Shown: one piece after another, positions 3,814-63,847 of the stretch
How the letters are laid out: the number at the start of each line of letters is the position of its first letter
Position numbering within the stretch: position 1 is the first letter of the stretch
Virus record (IMG/VR): IMGVR_UViG_3300034111_001607
Span: 880 to 64,879 of that record
Direction: 5' to 3' (one strand)
DNA: 64,000 nt
DNA from: a virus
Lineage: Duplodnaviria; Caudoviricetes
The notes under the pieces: model-generated
The model's input: only the letters and a program-made list of their open reading frames with translations
Database searches by the model: none
What the model was told of the DNA's origin: nothing
Position numbers and translations under genes: made by a program

Positions 3814-4737
3814 TCATATAAATTTTTCTATTAAATGAATTTCTCCGTTTTGTGTTCTATCTCTTATTAAATCTTTGATTTCTTGACTAACATTAATATC
3901 GTCAAGCATTTGAGTTGCCTTTGCACTTATATCAATTATTAATCCTTGTGGATTAATAAAGTTATAAGAAACGGCGTTTAATCCCTCAATTGTTTGTGAG
4001 TTTGTAATTCTAAATTTAGCAAAAGTGTACTCGCCTTCATTTTTGCTTCTTATTGATTCTTTAAATCCGCTTGACCTCTTAAATAAAAACAAATCATTAA
4101 ATAAATATTGCCATACAAAAGGAACTAGGGATATTCTATATTGACAATTATTTTCAATATCATTTTGACGATATGTTAATACGGCATGATTTTGAGTTGT
4201 TTCGTTACTCACAAGCTCAATATTTTTCCAAAAGTGTTCACGCTCATTTGTATCGTGTTTTATTGTTATTGTTTCTCCATTTTGAATAACAATAACTTTT
4301 GAGGCGTTATAATCGTTTTGAAGTTGCGTTAAACGTTCTTTTTTTGCAATTTCCAAAGCTTCAATGCGTTCTTTTTCAAGTAAAATTTCACCTTTTTCCA
4401 CATATTCCCAAGCTTGTAATTTGTTATTGAATTTTTGAATAGTGCCATTAAAAGCTTTTAGCGGTGGAATTTTAGTATATAAATCAATGTCTTTTTGAAA
4501 AACTGTATTAACCAATTCGCAATTGTCTTTTTTATAAAAAATATCATTTATCTCTTTTTCAAATAAAACCCACTCTTCGTTTTCTAAAACTAAATATTGA
4601 TTATTGTTTGGCAATACTGTTGGCAATATTTTTGTGCTGTTTGCTATTGTAAAATACTCTTCTCCAATTTTTGGTGCGTCAATGATTGCTTTAAAAACTT
4701 TTTTGTCATTAGTTATTTCAAAATCTGCAATTTTCAT
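3814..4737 (-). CDS. Tail fibre assembly-like protein
   Basis: Follows the tail fibre gene; N.T...P...W and LEIAKKERLTQL patterns. Confidence 0.5.
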   Translation of the reverse strand: MKIADFEITNDKKVFKAIIDAPKIGEEYFTIANSTKILPTVLPNNNQYLVLENEEWVLFEKEINDIFYKKDNCELVNTVFQKDIDLYTKIPPLKAFNGTIQKFNNKLQAWEYVEKGEILLEKERIEALEIAKKERLTQLQNDYNASKVIVIQNGETITIKHDTNEREHFWKNIELVSNETTQNHAVLTYRQNDIENNCQYRISLVPFVWQYLFNDLFLFKRSSGFKESIRSKNEGEYTFAKFRITNSQTIEGLNAVSYNFINPQGLIIDISAKATQMLDDINVSQEIKDLIRDRTQNGEIHLIEKFI

Positions 4738-32758: not shown

Positions 32759-32939
32759 AAATTTTGCATAAAACCTTATGTATGTCGTGCATTATAACGC
32801 CACCAATGGCAATGTAAAAAGTATGGGAACTTTCTACTTGGAAGAAGTGTTTCACTGTTATAAGTAATATAACCCATAGCGGTATACAAATCAAAAATCG
32901 TAATAATATTTTCATATATTTTATAATAACTATATTCAA
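32748..32939 (-). CDS. Small membrane protein
   Basis: Hydrophobic ORF downstream of a TTGACA promoter. Confidence 0.4.
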   Translation of the reverse strand: MNIVIIKYMKILLRFLICIPLWVILLITVKHFFQVESSHTFYIAIGGVIMHDIHKVLCKIFDI

Positions 32940-33040
32940 TATATAAACATACTTTTTAAAATGTCAAGTCTTTTTTACAATATTTGTAAAAAAAGTCCGG
33001 AGAATTTGACATTTATTGTAAATTCAGCCCCAAACTGTTT

Positions 33041-33098: not shown

Positions 33099-34094
33099 AT
33101 GCAACAAGGTGCGAACTTCATTCGTGAAATAGATAAAACAAAACAAATAATTGAAGCAAGATATACAAGAGAGTTTATCCGTCTTTACAAACGCATCGGA
33201 AACGACTTGATTAACTTATTGCAGAAAAACCAATCAATAAACTTTCAAGAGACTTTCAAGAACTACACGCCAGATTATGTATATCTTTTTAGAAATATCT
33301 TTAATGATACCAAAAAAGAGCTTGGTTATGGAATAAGAACGAAATTGAACTTCAACCTTTCAAATCAAGTGCTTTTAAAAAGCGTTGTAGTGAGTGAAAC
33401 AGAACAGGAAAAAGTAAATGATTTATTTGATGAAAAATACACGCTCCTTCTTAACAATAGAACTGAAGAGCTTGCAAATAATAATTTTACAAACAGTGAA
33501 GCAAATTACTTTGAAAATCTATACACAAAATCAATAGGAATGTATGATAATTTTATTGCAGGTCAAAGACAAGAACAGTCTACACTTGGAACTGAACTTT
33601 TGGGACTTCTTTTAATTACAAATCCATCTAAAGCAGAAAAAACACGCATAAAGTATTTACAAAGACGAACGGAAACACTAAAGCAAAATACAGAAATGCT
33701 TGTTGAGAAACGCAATAAAACGGTTTTAAACTACTTCAAAGACAACCTTGAGGAAAAAATACCAGTTCGTTCGCAAAGCAACGCAGAATACGGCACAGGG
33801 CAAGCCTCAAGTGAGGTTAGAGAGGTAGAATATAATGCCATAAAAGAAAGCAACGCACAAACAAGCTCAGGGGTACTGGTCGCCAGTCTTATAAAAAAAG
33901 TTTGGTGGGAGCGTTCGCAGTTTATAAGAGGTGCAAGTCCAAGAATAAACCACCTTGCATTAAGTGGAAGTCAATCAAATTCGCAAGGAAACTTTTATGT
34001 TGGTGGTTATGAAGTGCCAAGCCCAAGACACTATAATTTACCAGCCGAAGAAAGTGCAAGGTGTAGGTGTGAGGTTGAATATATGATTAATTAA
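33099..34094 (+). CDS. Minor head/head morphogenesis protein (Mu gpF/SPP1 gp7-like)
   Basis: KKVW...R.NH...FYVGG...P...LPAEESARCRC. Confidence 0.8.
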   Translation: MQQGANFIREIDKTKQIIEARYTREFIRLYKRIGNDLINLLQKNQSINFQETFKNYTPDYVYLFRNIFNDTKKELGYGIRTKLNFNLSNQVLLKSVVVSETEQEKVNDLFDEKYTLLLNNRTEELANNNFTNSEANYFENLYTKSIGMYDNFIAGQRQEQSTLGTELLGLLLITNPSKAEKTRIKYLQRRTETLKQNTEMLVEKRNKTVLNYFKDNLEEKIPVRSQSNAEYGTGQASSEVREVEYNAIKESNAQTSSGVLVASLIKKVWWERSQFIRGASPRINHLALSGSQSNSQGNFYVGGYEVPSPRHYNLPAEESARCRCEVEYMIN

Positions 34095-34557
34095 GGTTTA
34101 GCTCGTAAATCATATAACCATTTTCACTTTTCATTATAGCTACTTCGCCGTTTTTAGTTTTAGTTGTAGCGTTGATAAAGTTAAGATTATAATAAATGTC
34201 TGGGTTGCCCTTGCTTAATGTTACAATTTTACTACACTTTTTATTGCATTTAACATACTCTATCAAGTGTGTTCTTAACTTGTTAGCAATTCCACGCCTT
34301 CTGTATTTTTTATTAACAAATAGGCTCCAAATTCTAAAACAATTGCTATTTTTAAAACGATCGTGAAGCCAAACCCCGCCGTATATATAAGCAATTGGTT
34401 TGTTATTTTTAAAATAGATAAAACACGGATCACTATTTAATGTGGAAATATGCAGTGGTACGAATGCCCCAGTCTCTTTACAAAAAGCCCGTGCCATACC
34501 ATAAATTCTTTTTTTAGTTTTTTTGGTAAATTCACTATCTTGACTACTTAATATCAT
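34087..34557 (-). CDS. GNAT family acetyltransferase
   Basis: LFVNKKYRRRGIA acetyl-CoA motif; YYNLNF. Confidence 0.8.
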   Translation of the reverse strand: MILSSQDSEFTKKTKKRIYGMARAFCKETGAFVPLHISTLNSDPCFIYFKNNKPIAYIYGGVWLHDRFKNSNCFRIWSLFVNKKYRRRGIANKLRTHLIEYVKCNKKCSKIVTLSKGNPDIYYNLNFINATTKTKNGEVAIMKSENGYMIYELNLN

Positions 34558-34811: not shown

Positions 34812-34990
34812 ATAATTTGTATTAGTTATACATCATATAAACACACTATTTTTAAAAAGTCAAGAAGTTTTTTATTATTTAATTATATATTGTTGCGGTA
34901 AAATATTATTATTTAATTAAACAAAACTTGACATTTAAATTTTTGCTTTATAAAAAAGTATATGACTAATATATTTTATAAAAAAACTTA

Positions 34991-40426: not shown

Positions 40427-40494
40427 AGATTTTTAAAAAAATTAACTTAGATTTTTCAAGTGGTGAACTTGATATATATTTATATACTATGTTT

Positions 40495-41016
40495 TCAAAA
40501 AGTCAAGCAATTTCCTTGTATTTTCTTAATTTTTTCCTGTTCTTTCAGGTCTATTGCAAGATTATATTTTCCCTTAATGTGTAACCATTTTGCAATATAC
40601 TCGCAAATATACTCTTTATGTGGTGGTAGCCATTCCGCAGGGTCTTTGTCGCTTTTTTGTCTGTTTAATGATTTGTTAACCGCAATAAGATTTTCATAAT
40701 CATTTGCAAAGACTTCCCTTTGTTTTGCTGTCCATTTATCCGCTCCGCTTTCCCAAGCCTCGTGAAGTGGTACAATATGGTCAATGTCAAGACTTGAAGG
40801 TTGTGTGTAAAACTGCCCGCCATAATCATCATACCATTTTCCTTGAATAACACGGCAATCTTGAATTTTAACAGGTTTTAAACTGTCTTTTTGTAACACC
40901 TCTTGTCTTGTATTCAAACAGTCTCCGTCATCATCAATCCAGTGTTTGAAAGAACTTCTTGTATAACTTGCAAAAGCTATTTGTGAAAGAAGAAGGGTTA
41001 TGAGGAGGGTTTTCAT
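40495..41016 (-). CDS. Secreted HNH nuclease (DUF1524/GmrSD C-terminal-like)
   Basis: Signal peptide; HWIDDDGDCLNTRQEVL, LDIDHIVPL.EAW.SGA, NLIAV...NRQKSD. Confidence 0.85.
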   Translation of the reverse strand: MKTLLITLLLSQIAFASYTRSSFKHWIDDDGDCLNTRQEVLQKDSLKPVKIQDCRVIQGKWYDDYGGQFYTQPSSLDIDHIVPLHEAWESGADKWTAKQREVFANDYENLIAVNKSLNRQKSDKDPAEWLPPHKEYICEYIAKWLHIKGKYNLAIDLKEQEKIKKIQGNCLTF

Positions 41017-41193: not shown

Positions 41194-41799
41194 TTAAATA
41201 GTTGTTTTTCTTATATAGTTTATGTAATTAAGGCAATGTTTTATTGCAGTATCGTATTTATATTCATGAGTATAATCGGTAGGCACTAGTTTTTCATATC
41301 CATAATTTCCCTTACTCCATTCCTCATACTCCATAGCAGGCACAAAAACATAGCCTCCTGCATCAATAACATAAGTACAAAATACCTGATACAATATTTC
41401 TCTTAGTTCATTTATAAATATTTGTTTTGGTGTTTGTAAAATTTTAATGCTATAAATAATAAATTCAGCTTTAATATTATTTTGTGTTGAAAAATTTTGT
41501 ATTATTATTTTTTTACATTTTTCAAAATATTGTATTTCTTTATTCGACCATATAAATACAAATTCATGTACTTTTTCCTGTTCAGGAATTTGACATAAAA
41601 CTTTAACTTCATATTTTGTATAGTATGAAATATTCTGTAATTTTGATTTTATGTTAAATTGAAAACCAAACTCAGTTTTTGATTTTTCTTTTTTCATTGC
41701 ACGATAAAGACCTTTTAACTGCTGTAAGTTAAACTTTCTCAATTCTATTTTTACCAAACCTTCATTGTAAAATAATGGTTCTTTAATTTCAACTTTCAT
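41194..41799 (-). CDS. Hypothetical protein
   Basis: 201-aa ORF. Confidence 0.55.
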   Translation of the reverse strand: MKVEIKEPLFYNEGLVKIELRKFNLQQLKGLYRAMKKEKSKTEFGFQFNIKSKLQNISYYTKYEVKVLCQIPEQEKVHEFVFIWSNKEIQYFEKCKKIIIQNFSTQNNIKAEFIIYSIKILQTPKQIFINELREILYQVFCTYVIDAGGYVFVPAMEYEEWSKGNYGYEKLVPTDYTHEYKYDTAIKHCLNYINYIRKTTI

Positions 41800-41813
41800 A
41801 TAGTTTAAAAAAA

Positions 41814-42659
41814 TTAAATTACTTTTTCTGGGCTTGTTATAATAATGTCTTTTGCACCAATCTTGCTTAATGTTTTTAGAACTTTAAAAAGCTCTTTTTC
41901 ATCACAAAGGGCATGTATTGCAACCATATCATCTTGAACGAGTGGCAAAATTGTCGGCGTGTGGCTTGGTAAATAATGACATATTAACTCAATACTTTTC
42001 TTTTCACAGTTTAACATAACATATTTCTTGTTTTTAGCGTTTTCAGTGGCTTCTATTTTAAACAGAATGTCTTTTATAACATCACTATTTGAACCGATTA
42101 AAACTGCTTGTGAGTGCATTAATGTTTCCCCTTCTACCAGTCCGCTTTTTCTTAGAGTTTCGCCAGTTTCCACTATATCAAAAATAGCATCTGCAATTCC
42201 AAGCTCAATAGCGTGTTCTACTGAGCCAGTTAAATCAATAACATTAAGAAGATAGTCAGGAAAGTTAATATTATTATACAATATATTTTGATAAGAAGTT
42301 GCAACTTTGATGTATTGTAAATCATTGCGTTTTAAGTATGTCTTACCTGCAATAGAAAGTCTACAATGTCCAAAAGGTAGTTTTTGAATTAATGGTATTA
42401 CATCTTTTAATGCCATAGCATAGTAATTAAACGATTCCAGTGTATTTTGTCCACATATACCATTATTTACACCTTTTTCTTCAAGTAGAAGCGGTATATC
42501 TTTTTCACGCATTAAAACTAAATCAAAGTCTCCATTTATACATTGTAATTGAAAACCTGTGTTGTCTTTTTTAAATTCAAAACCTGCTTCGGTAAAACAT
42601 TTTAAAGTATCATTATGTAACCTACCGTTTTTTGGTATTGCTATTTTTATTCTGTTCAT
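41814..42659 (-). CDS. hisG: ATP phosphoribosyltransferase, long form
   Basis: IAIPKNGRL, R.KDIP, LPFGHCRLSIA, VATSY, GSVE...LGIADAIFDIVETGETL, and C-terminal regulatory domain with PTILPL. Confidence 0.95.
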   Translation of the reverse strand: MNRIKIAIPKNGRLHNDTLKCFTEAGFEFKKDNTGFQLQCINGDFDLVLMREKDIPLLLEEKGVNNGICGQNTLESFNYYAMALKDVIPLIQKLPFGHCRLSIAGKTYLKRNDLQYIKVATSYQNILYNNINFPDYLLNVIDLTGSVEHAIELGIADAIFDIVETGETLRKSGLVEGETLMHSQAVLIGSNSDVIKDILFKIEATENAKNKKYVMLNCEKKSIELICHYLPSHTPTILPLVQDDMVAIHALCDEKELFKVLKTLSKIGAKDIIITSPEKVI

Positions 42660-42667
42660 ATATTTTT

Positions 42668-43093
42668 TTAAATTCTTCTATAATTATTATTTATTTTACA
42701 CCATTCAAAAGTATAGTTATAGAATTTTTGTGTATTTAAGATTACCCGTGCTTTTGCAAGCTCAGTTTGCATTTTTTTTGCATCATTTTTATAAAATTCT
42801 TGAATTTCTTTAAATTGTTTAAGTCTTTTTATTTTGAGTATATTTGCAAATATATAAACATTTGGATCATTTTTTTTTATAGTGCTAGATATTACTTTTG
42901 CTGCTTTTTTTTCATTTACAATCCGCAAATATTCTTCTTCAGATATCATTGAAAATTTATAATGTGGACTATCAAAACCATTTAACCCACGACTAACAGT
43001 CGATACAACAACATTCATTTTATTAGCAAGTTTTCCTATACTGTCTGCAACAAAAACTGTATTATGTCCTCGTAAAATTCCTTTGTAAAACAT
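42668..43093 (-). CDS. NUMOD1-like DNA-binding domain protein
   Basis: SIGKLANKMNV..STVSRGLNG. Confidence 0.45.
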   Translation of the reverse strand: MFYKGILRGHNTVFVADSIGKLANKMNVVVSTVSRGLNGFDSPHYKFSMISEEEYLRIVNEKKAAKVISSTIKKNDPNVYIFANILKIKRLKQFKEIQEFYKNDAKKMQTELAKARVILNTQKFYNYTFEWCKINNNYRRI

Positions 43094-43108
43094 ATTATTT
43101 TCTAAAAA

Positions 43109-43723
43109 TTAATCCATTTTTAATGCCATCTCTATTTGATATGGATCGTACCATTGCACTTGATTTTCTTTAAATTTTACCTTTTGTATCTTATCATAAA
43201 AACACCATTTTTTTCCATCACCACGCCAACACACATTTGAAAATAACATTGAATGATTATGGTCTGTGAGATATTTGTGCCATTTTGTAAAATTACCGCC
43301 AAAAGTTGGTATTTTATAAGGCTCGTAAACACAATAAACTAATTTCATTTTATCATATAAATTTTGGTATGTTTCAGCATCATAATATGTTGCTGGCGGA
43401 AACACTTCATACCTACCTGTTTTACAATCAGAATACTCTTCTTGAAAATCTTTAATAAGATTCTTAATTTTTATATTTTCTAAAATATCAACCAAGTCGC
43501 CACTACTTACTTTGATAATTTCTTTTTGGTGTAATGTTTCTGTCTTTTTTCGTGTTCTTTTTAATTCTTTTTCATTATATAACCCAACAACACTTGTATG
43601 ATGAAACATTGCATCATTATCTGCTTCTTTACTTCTCAATTGATATTTTGGATATAATATGTGAATAGTATCTACCGGTTGTTTTTCTCGCTCTAAATAT
43701 AATTCTAATTCTTTTGTAAGCAT
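43109..43723 (-). CDS. Hypothetical protein
   Basis: 204-aa ORF. Confidence 0.6.
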   Translation of the reverse strand: MLTKELELYLEREKQPVDTIHILYPKYQLRSKEADNDAMFHHTSVVGLYNEKELKRTRKKTETLHQKEIIKVSSGDLVDILENIKIKNLIKDFQEEYSDCKTGRYEVFPPATYYDAETYQNLYDKMKLVYCVYEPYKIPTFGGNFTKWHKYLTDHNHSMLFSNVCWRGDGKKWCFYDKIQKVKFKENQVQWYDPYQIEMALKMD

Positions 43724-43737
43724 ATATATTTTTACAA

Positions 43738-44052
43738 TTAATCTTTTTTCAATGCTTCTTTTACATTATTTATTATTGAATGCCTATATTCGGGGTTTTT
43801 CAAAAGATATTTCCAATATACTTCATTGTTATGAAGTTTAAAGACATGTGTTTTTATAAATAATGGAAATTTATCTAATATTTTAAATACAAAATCGTAT
43901 TGTCTTTTCTTTTTCATTTTAAATATAGTTTGTATTTCATACTCTTCGCCATCAAAAGTACCTATATCTTTTATCTTTAATGAACATTTATTGCGTTTGG
44001 GTTCAATATAACGCCAGCAGTCGCCTAATTTTTTTAAAAACTCTTCATTCAT
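43738..44052 (-). CDS. Hypothetical protein
   Basis: 104-aa ORF. Confidence 0.5.
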   Translation of the reverse strand: MNEEFLKKLGDCWRYIEPKRNKCSLKIKDIGTFDGEEYEIQTIFKMKKKRQYDFVFKILDKFPLFIKTHVFKLHNNEVYWKYLLKNPEYRHSIINNVKEALKKD

Positions 44053-44066
44053 ATAATTGTTATTAG

Positions 44067-44351
44067 TTAATCTTTTTGAAGTGCTTCCTCAATTGCTTTT
44101 TGGTTTTCAAGAAAAGCCTCTGCATGCATTGCAATCTGGTCTTGAAAGCTTTGGTTGTCTAAAAGCCAGTCAATAAACTCTTGCATATTTTCATCACATA
44201 CACCACCAACTTTTGCTTGCGATGAAAGGTTTGTAGTTGTTTGATGGCAAAACAGTAGATATCTACCAATAGACATTTCCAGTAATGAAGCTTGTGATTT
44301 TATTTGATTATGTTCGCCTTTTTCAATATCAATTCCAATTCTTTTTTTCAT
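44067..44351 (-). CDS. Ribbon-helix-helix DNA-binding protein
   Basis: KRIGIDI..EHNQIKSQASLLEMSIGRYL. Confidence 0.6.
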   Translation of the reverse strand: MKKRIGIDIEKGEHNQIKSQASLLEMSIGRYLLFCHQTTTNLSSQAKVGGVCDENMQEFIDWLLDNQSFQDQIAMHAEAFLENQKAIEEALQKD

Positions 44352-44524
44352 AAAGCTTTAATAAAATTTTGAGTTTCGTTAAAATTTCCAATAGATAGAA
44401 AATTATTTACACCTTCAAGGGTTATTGTGAAAGTGTTTTCACCATGTTGTTCTATTTCTGCATTTAATCTTTTTTTATTTAGTAATTTTTGTAAAAAATT
44501 TAATTCCCAAGAAATTATTTTCAT
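44348..44524 (-). CDS. Hypothetical protein (likely start ATG 44524)
   Basis: ATG follows the promoter and TAACTAA motif. Confidence 0.45.
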   Translation of the reverse strand: MKIISWELNFLQKLLNKKRLNAEIEQHGENTFTITLEGVNNFLSIGNFNETQNFIKAL

Positions 44525-44673
44525 ATTTTGTATATTAGTTATACACAATATAATATCATTGTTTTTCAAATGTCAAGTGTTTTTTTACATTTTTTACATT
44601 TTTGTATTTTTTTACTTTTTTACTTGACTTTTTGATTTTATACTTTATACATTCATATAACTAATTTATTTTT

Positions 44674-49548: not shown

Positions 49549-50085
49549 TCAATTAAATAAATTAGCTATTTTCTCCCAAGTTTCAGGGGTTTGTTCTTCT
49601 AAAAGGTTTGTGTTAAAATCACAAAACTTTCCAACTGGAAGTATATGAATTATTTGGTGTATTTCTAAACCTTTTGCAATATAAATATGGTCTTTTTTGT
49701 TTGTATTTAGTAAATTAAGAACATCAAAAAGTGTTATTGGTCTGCCAAGAATTTGAAAATCTATTACCTTGCCGTGGTTTTGTCGTATTTTATCGGTTAA
49801 ATACAATTGCATATTCCCCCAGTATTCTGTTACAAAAACTTGTTTATACACATCGTTATAATTAGTCGGTTTACTCGCTCCACAAGCAATACCGATTGCT
49901 GAACCATTTATAAAATCTCCTTTAAAATTTACATAGACTCTACATAAATTACCTGCATCGGTATTGCCAAAATTAAAAAACTCCCTCTCCAAAGCCTCAT
50001 CTAAGGTTTTTGCCGTGGGGTTATTATTCATAATTACTTTTTCCCATATCTTTTTGTAGTGTGGGTTTTGTAGTGCGTTTTGCAT
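49549..50085 (-). CDS. Hypothetical protein, tandem paralogue 2
   Basis: Shares KKIWEKVIMN, ILGRPITLFDVL and EEQTPETWEKIANL with 50089-50547. Confidence 0.7.
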   Translation of the reverse strand: MQNALQNPHYKKIWEKVIMNNNPTAKTLDEALEREFFNFGNTDAGNLCRVYVNFKGDFINGSAIGIACGASKPTNYNDVYKQVFVTEYWGNMQLYLTDKIRQNHGKVIDFQILGRPITLFDVLNLLNTNKKDHIYIAKGLEIHQIIHILPVGKFCDFNTNLLEEQTPETWEKIANLFN

Positions 50086-50088
50086 AAA

Positions 50089-50547
50089 TCAATCAATTAA
50101 ATTAGCTATTTTCTCCCAAGTTTCAGGTGTTTGTTCTTCAATTAAATTACTTTTATTGTTTATATCGCATATCTTTTTTACAAAATATTGGAATATATCA
50201 TTAGAAGTATTGCGTGTGACATCAATATTACACAACACAACACAGTTGGTCATTAACGCAAACTCACCGTTCTCTATATTTTTTTGTAACAATTTTAAAA
50301 CATCAAAAAGAGTTATTGGTCTTCCTAAGATATTATAGGTTTTGTCGTAAATTTTTCCCATCTTATTAGACATATCAAAATTTACAATATTTATATGTGA
50401 CGTCGTCTTTGTTAAACCATAATAACACCCAACTTGTGAAAATTCTAATACCAAAGCCTCCTCCAAAGACTCCGCCTCTGGGTGTCTATTCATTATTACT
50501 TTTTCCCAAATCTTTTTGAAGTGGAGGTTGTTAAGTGCTTCTTGCAT
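50089..50547 (-). CDS. Hypothetical protein, tandem paralogue 1
   Basis: Same three conserved blocks as 49549-50085. Confidence 0.7.
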   Translation of the reverse strand: MQEALNNLHFKKIWEKVIMNRHPEAESLEEALVLEFSQVGCYYGLTKTTSHINIVNFDMSNKMGKIYDKTYNILGRPITLFDVLKLLQKNIENGEFALMTNCVVLCNIDVTRNTSNDIFQYFVKKICDINNKSNLIEEQTPETWEKIANLID

Positions 50548-51341: not shown

Positions 51342-51389
51342 ATTTTTTTTTGTTAGTTATATATATTTATATAGTGTGTTTTTTAAAAG

Positions 51390-51812
51390 TCAAGTATTTT
51401 CTTTGTTTTTTTCTTTGTTTTTTTCTTGCATTATTTGGTATATATTATCAAAATATTTCATATCATTTTCACGCAACTTTTCAAGCATTTCCCACCCAAG
51501 TAATGCAACACCTTTTTTTGGCTTTTTTACTTTATCAATAATAAATCCATTTCCATTTAAAAATCCTGCAATATCACCGCCATATTCAATACGAATTGCG
51601 TCTCTCAAGCCATTTAGTCTGTTTTGATTTTGCATTAGAATAGCATAAAGTATATCAATACACACACTACCGATGCCATTTTCATACGACCTGTTATACC
51701 AATCTGTTTTAAATCTATATGGAGTAGTTTGAATATATTTGTTATCTTTTAAGATTTTATAAAGACCATCAAGATATTCTGTTAATTTGTGTTTTTGTGT
51801 GCTATGGTGCAT
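51390..51812 (-). CDS. Hypothetical protein
   Basis: 140-aa ORF after the exonuclease gene. Confidence 0.55.
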   Translation of the reverse strand: MHHSTQKHKLTEYLDGLYKILKDNKYIQTTPYRFKTDWYNRSYENGIGSVCIDILYAILMQNQNRLNGLRDAIRIEYGGDIAGFLNGNGFIIDKVKKPKKGVALLGWEMLEKLRENDMKYFDNIYQIMQEKNKEKNKENT

Positions 51813-53191: not shown

Positions 53192-53316
53192 AATGTTATA
53201 TATTAGTTATACTCAATATAACAACATACTTTTTTAAATGTCAAGTAATTTCTTTGTTTTTTTCTTTGTTTTTTTCTTGACTTTATAAAAACAATAATTT
53301 AATACTTTCATAACTA

Positions 53317-54860: not shown

Positions 54861-54867
54861 ATATAAT

Positions 54868-54941
54868 ATTCACAGGCTGGATTTGAACCAGCGTCATTAA
54901 GTTATTACCCCTAATATGCTTCCAGACTACACCACTGTCAA
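54868..54941 (-). tRNA. Aberrant tRNA-like element (Met/Ile-like; pseudo-tRNA or decoy)
   Basis: Cloverleaf with T arm GCTGG-TTCAAAT-CCAGC and D arm GTGT-AGTCTGGAA-GCAT; 8-nt anticodon loop GGTAATAA; G3:G70 mismatch; no CCA. Confidence 0.65.
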
Positions 54942-54951
54942 TATCTTGGAT

Positions 54952-62646: not shown

Positions 62647-63198
62647 ATGAAACTGAACTTTACAATTTTAGAAAAAAGCCGTAAAATAATAAAGTTTTTT
62701 TATATAATAGGACAAGAGCCTTTGTTTCAAGCCAGTGGTATAATATTAGCATTTGCTATACCAAATAATACAGTTAAAATAATAGTATTATTGATAACAT
62801 TAGCCCTACTTCTTAGAAATAAACAAAGTGTAGTTAATAACAATAATTTCCACCTCAAAGAGCCAATGCGTGTAAATCATTTAATGTTTAGTAATAATGA
62901 AGTTTTACAAAAAGCATTAAATAGACAACTTGACAACGGATATAAAGTGAATATGATTTTAGAGCTTATTGAAAACGATGATGTTTCTTCGTGGGAAGAT
63001 GATGAGTTGCAGACATTGATAGACTTATATGAGAAGGCAAGGTGGAATTGTTTTAAACAAAGAGATACGCGAGATTACGAAACAAAAGAAATTACAAAAA
63101 CGGAAACTAAAACAGAAGAAGAGTATCAAAAAGCATTATTGCACAAAGAGAAATGTCTTAAGGAACTTAAGGAATATTTGGAAAATAAATTTAATTGA
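62647..63198 (+). CDS. Hypothetical membrane protein
   Basis: N-terminal hydrophobic hairpin. Confidence 0.5.
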   Translation: MKLNFTILEKSRKIIKFFYIIGQEPLFQASGIILAFAIPNNTVKIIVLLITLALLLRNKQSVVNNNNFHLKEPMRVNHLMFSNNEVLQKALNRQLDNGYKVNMILELIENDDVSSWEDDELQTLIDLYEKARWNCFKQRDTRDYETKEITKTETKTEEEYQKALLHKEKCLKELKEYLENKFN

Positions 63199-63208
63199 TA
63201 AAAATAAT

Positions 63209-63847
63209 ATGATACACCCACTTAAACTGCAACGCAGTAATATGATTGCATACGAACAAATTGACAAAGACGGAAATCACATTATAATTGATGGTAAAAG
63301 CCAAATGCCCGATTATTTAAGTGAAAAGTTTTTATTAGAAGAGTATCAAGAAAAAATACAAGCTGAAAGTGATTTAAAAATAATTGAAAGCATTAAAGAT
63401 GTTTTAAGTCAAAACTACTATTTTAAAATTATTGAAGTAGGCGAGTTGCTGCACGCAGATGCACTTGGTGATATTCTTATATGCACAGCAGGGGCAGGTA
63501 TTCAACACAAAATATCTTTAGAAGATTTCCCAGAACATTTTCACAAAAACCAATGGGAAGTAAGCCCAACGGACAATAAAGTTGATATTTTAAAAACAGT
63601 TGAATTAATACAAAATGATTTATCAAGTAAGCATGCAACCGCACAAAAATTACATTTAATATGGAATACCATTATTATTGAAGCAAAAGAACATTGCTTT
63701 GATATTGAGGGAATTTATAATGCAATTGCAGAAAATAACCTTGCAAGAATTATTTACGATGAAAATGGAAAACCAAAACGCAATTCAGAAACTAATAAAA
63801 TTATGCGTAAAGATATGCACCCAGATTTAACACCTTTTATTTTATAA
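63209..63847 (+). CDS. MazG-like/PRA-PH family NTP pyrophosphohydrolase
   Basis: LLEEYQE, ADALGDIL, FDIEGIYNAIAENNLAR..DENGKPKR..NKIM...PDL. Confidence 0.75.
   Translation: MIHPLKLQRSNMIAYEQIDKDGNHIIIDGKSQMPDYLSEKFLLEEYQEKIQAESDLKIIESIKDVLSQNYYFKIIEVGELLHADALGDILICTAGAGIQHKISLEDFPEHFHKNQWEVSPTDNKVDILKTVELIQNDLSSKHATAQKLHLIWNTIIIEAKEHCFDIEGIYNAIAENNLARIIYDENGKPKRNSETNKIMRKDMHPDLTPFIL

Follow-up and report, generated by a model that had tools for sequence, protein, structure and literature searches.

A long-form ATP phosphoribosyltransferase gene carried as an accessory cassette in a lineage of lake-water phages

The DNA studied here is a window of 64,000 nucleotides, that is, the IMG/VR virus record IMGVR_UViG_3300034111_001607 (64,879 bases, with direct terminal repeats) minus its first 879 bases. 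On its minus strand, at 41814-42659, it carries hisG, whose product is a genuine phage-borne long-form ATP phosphoribosyltransferase (HisG-L, EC 2.4.2.17). The open reading frame (ORF) and the parts of the protein with which we deal are as follows.

41814..42659, minus strand: hisG, long-form ATP phosphoribosyltransferase, an ORF of 281 amino acids (aa) with an ATG start and no internal stop
42078..42659, minus strand: catalytic domains, residues 1-194, with TIGR00070 matching over residues 4-188
42153..42218, minus strand: phosphoribosyl pyrophosphate (PRPP)-binding loop region, E148...D161-I-V-E-T-G-E-T-L169, placed by conserved columns
41817..42077, minus strand: C-terminal regulatory domain of the histidine-binding type, residues 195-281, matched by HisG_C and TIGR03455
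41940..41972, minus strand: loop L230-P-S-H-T-P-T236-I-L-P-L240, one residue shorter than usual in alignments

Both halves of the protein were recognized well above curated cut-offs. Pfam HisG (PF01634) matched with 111.5 bits (5e-32; cut-off 25.5) and HisG_C (PF08029) with 65.2 bits (6e-18; cut-off 23.5). The equivalog model TIGR00070 scored 131 bits against a cut-off of 75.75, over positions 1-182 of its 183, and TIGR03455 scored 75 bits against 40.05. As the regulatory domain sits on the same chain as the catalytic HisG, this is the long form and not the short form. The original prediction, made from the letters alone, had described an intact, long-form, stand-alone hisG with no other his genes nearby, and all of this was borne out. 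Indeed, a Pfam scan of 70 further window ORFs found no other his gene, whole-record searches gave no match to PRA-CH or to the PRPP-synthetase N domain, and no purine or PRPP-synthesis gene was found either. The phage hisG is thus encoded alone, and not in a his operon or close to one. PHROGs held no family for the protein.

Solved long-form enzymes from V. cholerae (7DAH), C. jejuni (4YB5-7), E. coli (1H3D), M. thermautotrophicus (2VD3) and M. tuberculosis (1NH8) matched the window protein over residues 2-280, with E-values from 3e-36 to 8e-22, the top ones from 3e-36 to 1e-31. The regulatory domain searched alone also found such structures, 2vd3 being the best (1.1e-11), along with 4yb5, 7dah and 1h3d. 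An AlphaFold2 model built on a 40-row alignment reached a mean predicted local distance difference test score of 93.3 and a predicted template modelling (TM) score of 0.83; an earlier model from a 7-row alignment was poor (54.9 on the former measure). When the fold was compared with the PDB by Foldseek, the best matches were long-form HisG structures with histidine and/or AMP bound, at TM scores of 0.79-0.81 (4yb6, E 6.6e-31, TM 0.79; 2vd3, TM 0.81; 1nh8, TM 0.79). The phage protein therefore has the same two catalytic domains and C-terminal regulatory domain as the solved enzymes. Shared with them are the PRPP loop, the R13/R51/D54/C99/E148/D161 core and, at the histidine site, the P-T motif; the identity to them is only 25-33%. 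The phage protein is also about 7 residues shorter past the strand at 185-189.

The catalytic residues R13, R51, D54, C99, E148, D161, G166 and T168 are invariant in the clade of phage HisG proteins described below. At E148, G154, D157, I159, D161, V163, G166, T168 and L169, the window protein has the residues of columns whose conservation across 113 cellular HisG sequences is 94% or more. The segment E148...D161-IVETGETL fits the PRPP loop signature of PROSITE and of the structure papers. With this core in place, the enzyme is presumably catalytically competent.

The 64.9-kb record is a terminally repeated lake-water myovirus. Its window encodes a contractile-tail virion (sheath, tape measure, Mu-like baseplate, tail fibres, protease, portal-like and capsid-like proteins, large terminase) and, besides, a DNA methylase, ribonucleotide reductase, YqaJ exonuclease, NinG, a Bro/antirepressor protein and a replication initiator. 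Family searches and Pfam scans found no integrase among the annotated window genes. No cultured relative and no clue to the host came from the following searches: megablast with a 12.4-kb query matched none of the phage records, and tblastn gave a single partial match at 29% for the large terminase and none for the capsid protein. IMG/VR scans with the HisG protein, the clade alignment and the large terminase found no relative, the phage's own record being possibly outside the scanned set. The stretch itself is found across many lake and freshwater metagenomes, and at least half of its sampled words were present in 12 sequencing runs, of which 2 are possibly the source.

That hisG could be an artefact, whether host contamination, a prophage flank or a chimeric assembly, had to be considered, as most of the other "viral" HisG matches we inspected are of this kind. 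Three of them (L009, L010, L013) are host his operons beside integrases, and the "UNVERIFIED" record MT835496 is a bacterial fragment of 72.8% GC. For the window we regard it as so improbable as to be negligible. Both ends of the terminally repeated genome, in which no integrase was recognized, are 20 kb away from the gene, and phage genes flank it, namely the terminase at 4.5 kb on one side and ribonucleotide reductase and recombination genes at 3.3 kb on the other. Its GC content is 0.307, as against 0.308 for the window, and its GC content at third codon positions is 0.199, as against 0.214 +/- 0.05 for the other window genes. Moreover, in three runs unmarked as source (X3, X4 and X5), contigs span both hisG junctions with 0 mismatches each, and in X3 a single contig of 1,780 bases covers 41604-43383 with 0 mismatches. 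Since contigs from other runs bridge both ends of hisG, a chimera or host contamination is excluded for practical purposes, and the chimeric assembly that the original prediction had named as a threat to its case is contradicted.

The phage hisG belongs to a small, old, phage-associated and very divergent clade. Of the clusters formed by 5.8 billion proteins, no more than seven were 60-100% identical to the window HisG, and the next matches were at 37% or below. An exhaustive profile-free scan of 1.84 billion representatives returned 2,353 matching proteins, in which the clade was confined to one 50%-identity cluster. An unnamed protein of 291 aa (P0121) was 47% identical to the window HisG and the rest were at 39% or below, which is also the identity of the nearest named cellular HisG. 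Identity within the clade is 60-87%. As the original prediction had suggested, we built trees with cellular HisG. The phage proteins formed a separate monophyletic clade (approximate likelihood-ratio support, SH-aLRT, of 100) on a long stem, with P0121 as its sister (SH-aLRT 99), not nested within the Bacteroidota-type or gammaproteobacterial-type groups that provide its best matches. A first scan of species genomes found no HisG relative; when prokaryotes were scanned with one genome for each species, 579 matches resulted, the best at 37%. The best 80 of these 579, at 32-37% identity, were mostly Bacteroidota by title, a share possibly biased as the search pattern favours the Bacteroidota-type N-terminus.

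Eight full-length members of the clade, all intact, are available: the window protein, P0001, P0003-P0007, of which P0003 is encoded on a 56.6-kb contig, and the copy on a related contig, L002. For six full-length pairs drawn from four alleles, the ratio of non-synonymous to synonymous substitution rates (dN/dS) was 0.20-0.26, at dS from 0.3 to more than 1. By segment, it was 0.08-0.29 for residues 1-72, 0.34-0.53 for residues 73-140, 0.10-0.21 for the PRPP-loop segment 141-194 and 0.15-0.30 for the regulatory domain 195-281. The clade is thus under purifying selection, regulatory domain included. Consistently, the majority of its members keep 25 of the 26 columns that are fully invariant in cellular HisG (among them R51, D54, C99, E148, D161, G166 and L169). 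Of 74 columns with a conservation of 90% or more in the 113 cellular homologues, 54 are kept by the clade majority. The other 20 highly conserved columns are replaced, mostly by residues on which the clade agrees, among them Q9P, D52E, D53K, S164E (in 7 of 8), N172S, V251L, W258F and L273I/V. Several of these, namely P9, K53 and E164, are presumably states of other HisG subfamilies. A near-universal proline after A104 is also missing from the phage clade. The window protein is overall closest to P0001, and its C-terminal part resembles the P0005-type allele, which argues for recombination within hisG.

The original prediction had pointed to the loop LPSHTPTILPL as one residue short, and the alignments agreed. 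There is a one-residue gap with respect to E. coli LPGAERPTILPL, and the same gap with respect to the C. jejuni and V. cholerae enzymes. The LP-to-PT spacing, which is 4 residues in 109 of 113 cellular homologues and 3 in none of them, is 3 in the window. The short loop is shared by only three of the eight clade members (window, P0005 and the L002 copy), the five others having the usual length, and P235 and T236 are invariant throughout.

Known mutants bear on what such changes mean for histidine feedback. In M. tuberculosis, the histidine-site residues are D216, D218, T238, A249, L253, A273 and L275, with T238 fully conserved, and the D216V, T238V and A249K substitutions abolish histidine inhibition (2026 study, PMC13018310). 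The E271K substitution renders E. coli HisG feedback-resistant (PMC5852967), as do N215K/L231F/T235A and G233H/T235Q in C. glutamicum (PMC10464499). We mapped the M. tuberculosis numbering by eye from the peptide contexts in the primers of PMC13018310. The LP..PT segment that is short in the window is also the one that holds C. glutamicum L231, G233 and T235 and M. tuberculosis T238. In contrast to the feedback-resistant mutants, the phage protein keeps the residues that these change (E254, T236, A247 and N217). As a matter of fact, no member of the clade varies at T236 (M. tuberculosis T238), A247 (A249), L251 (L253) or E254 (E. coli E271), nor at N217, N being also the commonest cellular state (77/113). 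The histidine pocket does differ in places from that of the nearest cellular relatives. Position 219 is variable in the clade as against P in 108 of 113 cellular homologues, position 251 is L as against V in 110 of 113, position 271 is an invariant D as against G, S or D, and position 273 is I or V as against L in all 113. The N217/D271 pair occurs also in 2VD3, an archaeal structure titled "histidine inhibited HisG". Because key histidine-site residues and the regulatory domain are kept, we see no sequence reason to call the enzyme feedback-resistant. The proposal that it might be, made in the original prediction, was not supported, given a short loop in a minority of the clade, the retention of T236, A247, L251 and E254, the constraint on the regulatory domain and the N217/D271 pair of 2VD3. 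The regulatory domain has probably retained the binding of a ligand, of which histidine is the likeliest.

HisG is rare in phages. The original prediction knew of no common phage hisG and asked for a survey, which we ran. By tblastn, 26 of 50,697 phage records had a HisG-like match, all below 32% identity. Two of them, MT835496 and Lak-B5, were inspected, the rest comprising a further 14 Lak genomes and 10 contigs, most of them short. MT835496.1 (51613-62446; "UNVERIFIED: Bacteriophage sp.", 159 kb) was rejected as a phage: in addition to its GC content, it looks like a bacterial chromosome fragment, with fmt, rsmB, rpe, pnuC, hisG and a PafC-like regulator. Five loci came from a pattern scan in which a broad alignment was run against IMG/VR. 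Three were the host his operons already mentioned; of the two others, one had integrases only beside a cut gene and one had a short-form HisG adjoining a Mu Gp36 gene. The inspected IMG/VR matches were thus mostly host DNA.

The Prevotella phage Lak-B5 (MK250024.1, 132996-141601) encodes a short-form HisG homologue of 217 aa (Pfam 5.5e-26; positions 3989-4642 of the extracted locus), for which no description was found in the literature searched. Its neighbours (RNA ligase, Ham1 NTPase, a cytidylyltransferase-like and a SAICAR-synthetase-like protein) form a nucleotide-metabolism-like cluster. As in the window, the gene belongs to a bona fide phage, one of the Lak megaphages of 540-550 kb, and stands without other his genes in the 8.6 kb inspected. 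In contrast to the window protein, the Lak HisG lacks HisG_C and is 25-29% identical to it over 62-70% of the query. It is an independent acquisition. In BFVD, the only viral structures with E below 1e-5 were giant-virus HisIE fusions of Satyrvirus and Barrevirus (3.5e-14 and 1.3e-10). They share a HisG-like domain (TM 0.51-0.55 over about 215 columns) and are otherwise multi-domain HisIE-annotated proteins of eukaryote viruses, 491-641 aa long and 15-18% identical, not stand-alone enzymes. We found no paper naming hisG as a phage gene, though supplementary gene tables may list it, and a review of jumbo phages (PMC7824862) does not mention HisG. A soil virome paper (PMC13365211) has "histidine biosynthesis" as a category of auxiliary metabolic genes, with no gene named.

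In the window, hisG is the sixth gene of a leftward unit that starts at a putative promoter at 44.5 kb, with gaps of 8 and 14 nucleotides around it. The features of this unit, and one more distant candidate, are listed here.

44547..44576, minus strand: sigma-70-like promoter (TTGACA, 18 nt, TATATT; 11 of 12 matches), putative head of the leftward hisG unit
43109..44524, minus strand: four small upstream genes of the unit (58, 94, 104 and 204 aa), ORFs with no family match
42668..43093, minus strand: 141-aa gene directly upstream of hisG, a probable helix-turn-helix (HTH) protein judging by its homologues and by HTH_3 in the related contig L008
41194..41799, minus strand: 201-aa gene directly downstream of hisG, with no Pfam or PHROG family (Atlas best 0.85, a lead only)
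40472..40535, minus strand: the following copy of the promoter element, at which the hisG unit probably ends (repeat family D2; six-copy alignment)
63239..63847, plus strand, inside ORF 63029-63847: possible, weak nucleotide pyrophosphohydrolase of the MazG/HisE superfamily, leads only

The promoter is the best promoter-like site of the region. It belongs to an intergenic element present in six minus-strand copies (32916-33001, 34812-34897, 40472-40535, 44525-44610, 51359-51422 and 53193-53278), with an invariant CTTGAC(A/T)TTT..AAAA followed by TATAxT about 18 nt downstream. The six copies are probably the leftward early promoters of the phage. The form of 58 aa corresponds to 44348-44524, its start at 44524 being placed by the promoter alignment. 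Past hisG, the unit continues with the 201-aa gene and an HNH/GmrSD_C-type nuclease, up to the 40.5-kb element. It would thus consist of early genes read by the host polymerase. The original prediction had placed hisG among small phage early genes; the small genes and the unit behind a sigma-70-like promoter are there, and "early" is something we infer. The nuclease (40495-41016, minus strand; GmrSD_C/HNH-type domain, 2.6e-18) has a signal-peptide-like N-terminus, MKTLLITLLLSQIAFA..., and is 72% conserved in a related contig (L008:4186-4719), which makes it a candidate secreted phage nuclease, an unusual case.

For the candidate at 63239-63847 there are weak leads. PRA-PH matched with 14-15 bits, below the cut-off of 21.3 (15 bits at window 63323-63550 in the whole-record search), phrog_671 "nucleotide pyrophosphohydrolase" matched with E 0.0013, and Atlas gave 0.89 to a viral cluster in which 25% of the members have PRA-PH. 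Its segment IIEVGELLHADALGDIL resembles the metal-binding helix motif of the MazG/HisE superfamily. The candidate is relevant since a HisE-like activity would pull the HisG reaction forward.

Seven metagenome contigs (L002 to L008) carry hisG or a remnant of it amid homologues of the window's phage genes, and the order of the cassette varies among them. In the window and L007, the HTH gene precedes hisG. In L003, hisG is followed by the HTH gene, a sliding clamp, then a type I methylase and specificity subunit, and in L002 directly by a prephenate dehydrogenase gene (PDH_N, 8.5e-12; L002:2011-2520, plus strand, cut by the contig end). In L004 and L005, hisG is preceded by a 134-aa gene. In L003, L007 and L008, a homologue of the 141-aa HTH gene adjoins hisG or what is left of it. 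HTH_3 was found in the L008 homologue (1.4e-5; 25.5 bits against a cut-off of 23), the window's own gene giving no significant family match. In both L007 and L008, hisG has a homologue of the 94-aa gene on its upstream side, and a 91-aa ORF of L002 is alike by eye only; for the 201-aa gene no homologue was found in the related loci. We considered the neighbouring genes as partners of HisG and rejected them, as they differ from context to context.

In L002, L004-L006 and L008, shared DNA gives way to unshared DNA at the promoter element. L005 is 98.8% identical to the window over 608 bases, then carries a hisG allele only about 67% identical in protein, and L007 is 92% identical through the first 215 bases of hisG and 77% beyond. 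Two contigs retain only truncated copies. L008 has the first 34 hisG codons (L008:1341-1523), then the HTH and clamp genes, and L006 has about 120 codons identical to L004 (L006:415-843), then unrelated sequence, an assembly join being possible there as L006 is a 1-kb contig. With remnants only in two of seven related contigs, hisG is dispensable, that is, an accessory gene. Collectively, hisG is an accessory, recombining cassette in a hot spot of a lake-phage lineage, repeatedly kept and sometimes lost. The original prediction had held that relatives losing the gene would count against its proposal. Such loss does occur in these two contigs, yet the intact copies are clearly constrained.

Some further genes near the cassettes and in the window were recorded in passing. 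L007 carries a TnpB/Cas12f-like fragment near its hisG (L007:2-547, plus strand; Cas12f1-like_TNB, 5.8e-8, and OrfB_IS605), and the methylase and specificity subunit of L003 are a type I restriction-modification set (L003:3433-5501, plus strand). Two adjacent minus-strand genes of the window, at 49549-50085 (178 aa) and 50089-50547 (152 aa), have common repeats of 56-99 nt at 77-93% identity (families D3, D5 and D7) and look like a tandem gene duplication with no assigned function; a homologue of this duplicated gene adjoins hisG in L004. The only tRNA gene, at 54867-54942 on the minus strand, was called by ARAGORN as tRNA-Ile with an unusual anticodon AAT. A GNAT acetyltransferase gene (34087-34557, minus strand; Acetyltransf_1, 2.7e-10) lies between the head-morphogenesis and terminase regions.

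What the gene does for the phage can now be discussed. The reading that we place first, at about an even balance of belief, is that hisG is a phage auxiliary metabolic gene feeding the host histidine pathway. The gene would share with a few small genes a sigma-70-like promoter of the host type and be read, presumably, in the early phase of infection. Its product would join ATP and PRPP into phosphoribosyl-ATP, the committed step normally throttled by histidine, and this phage-made gate enzyme would add to the host's own, raising flux into the remaining pathway, for which HisE, I, A, F, H, B, C and D would be supplied by the host. Since the phage HisG keeps its regulatory domain, it would not be obviously deregulated. 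The cassette would be selected where present and lost in some relatives. Its activity, its timing of expression, its benefit to the phage and its response to histidine are what we infer here from sequence.

In favour of an auxiliary metabolic gene, this is, like others found in phages, a single rate-controlling enzyme of a host pathway, phage-flanked, composition-matched, conserved and variably present. Virus genes lie on both sides of it, and selection acts on it in related viruses (dN/dS 0.20-0.26). The prephenate dehydrogenase adjoining hisG in L002 suggests a theme of amino-acid supply. The HisG equilibrium favours the substrates, and HisE and pyrophosphatase pull the reaction forward. Each 5-aminoimidazole-4-carboxamide ribotide (AICAR) released by the pathway costs one ATP purine ring, and there is consequently no net purine gain. 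Thus, of the earlier suggestion that the gene boosts histidine and AICAR flux, the auxiliary metabolic gene remains the best reading and the purine boost appears weak. Several observations weigh against the histidine reading. Histidine makes up 1.44% of the phage proteome overall and 0.91% of its structural block, so that a special demand for histidine is not evident. As the phage has no other his gene, any benefit would depend wholly on the host. Among the sequencing runs that hold the stretch there is no RNA run. Truncated hisG is all that two of the seven related contigs have. Lastly, several positions near-invariant in the nearest cellular family, from Q9P to L273I/V, plus D271, are changed and fixed in the clade, which makes altered kinetics or an altered ligand response possible.

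A rather unlikely alternative is that the enzyme, with its allosteric response altered, serves metabolic diversion, ATP and PRPP being forced to phosphoribosyl-ATP and AICAR (ZMP). Host takeover would then come about by draining or rewiring the control of energy, purines and one-carbon units, or adenine nucleotides would be converted to guanine nucleotides by way of the histidine pathway. This would suit a proteome low in histidine, and the clade-fixed changes lining the pocket at 251, 271 and 273, with a variable 219, could be part of it. An engineered histidine-insensitive HisG slows the growth of M. tuberculosis through nutrient and energy depletion (PMC13018310), and AICAR, an analogue of AMP, acts as a signal in regulation, with feedback on HisG (PMC5852967). 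However, the phage protein keeps T236, A247 and E254, positions at which mutation removes histidine inhibition, the N217/D271 pair exists in a solved enzyme that is histidine-inhibited, and the regulatory domain is constrained to the same degree as the catalytic core, which fits retained regulation. A genome of 31% GC has, moreover, no evident need for extra guanine. The weak MazG/HisE-like candidate of the same genome could make the HisG step irreversible, yet it is a lead below every curated threshold and 20 kb from hisG. A more specific version, which we hold to be somewhat less probable still, is that a retuned pocket (L251, D271, I/V273, a variable 219 and a loop short in some alleles) would ignore histidine and, early in infection, turn ATP and PRPP into phosphoribosyl-ATP and ZMP, perhaps with the MazG/HisE-like pyrophosphohydrolase. 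If true, the virus would encode a means to override end-product feedback, and would with it reprogram the energy and purine signalling of its host, not supply histidine for virions.

HisG homologues make N-ribosylated nucleotides in clusters of the nucleoside-antibiotic type, and the phage enzyme might likewise make or modify another such nucleotide, or act in counter-defence on nucleotide signals or NAD-related metabolites. The short-form HisG of Lak does sit in a nucleotide context and not a histidine one, and the neighbours of the window hisG have no assigned function. We nevertheless deem such a role, which the original prediction had raised as its non-biosynthetic alternative, improbable, because no partner enzyme travels with hisG. 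The neighbours differ in each of the four intact contexts, and the only recurrent one, the small HTH protein, persists where hisG is deleted. The TIGR00070 equivalog cut-off is, besides, passed by a wide margin, and the ATP/PRPP core is kept together with the histidine-type regulatory domain. No more credible is a passenger gene, that is, an old cassette with no present function and in decay. The truncated copies of L006 and L008, the recombination hot spot bounded by repeated promoter elements and the fast evolution of residues 73-140 (dN/dS 0.34-0.53) would all be expected of one. A dN/dS of about 0.2 between intact alleles, at dS up to more than 1, is at odds with decay, and so are the at least 11 distinct full-length sequences that are intact, among them the eight named above, the fully phage-matched composition and the retention of 25 of 26 invariant columns.

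Any contribution of hisG as an auxiliary metabolic gene would be made in a host on which two observations bear. Shine-Dalgarno sequences (GGAG, GAGG or AGGA at -18 to -5) were seen at 3 of 77 window gene starts, as against a background of 3.5%, the leaders being A/T-rich. Together with the mostly Bacteroidota HisG matches (best 80 of 579), their near absence hints at a Bacteroidota host. Against this, the promoters are sigma-70-like and one 39% HisG relative is labelled as a metagenome-assembled genome of Rickettsiales.

Phage auxiliary metabolic genes usually target bottlenecks, and here the target is the one enzyme by which cells throttle the costly histidine pathway. The lineage that carries it, alone, is widespread in lakes, and one relative adds an enzyme of the tyrosine branch beside hisG. 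The analysis also shows that nearly all the other "viral" HisG matches that we inspected are host DNA. If the enzyme is active, it would offer a clean test of whether phages override or respect the end-product feedback of their host. The clade is also a natural set of divergent HisG-L proteins with varied regulatory loops, which could inform the design of deregulated HisG for histidine production, as well as the idea of HisG activation as an antibacterial strategy.

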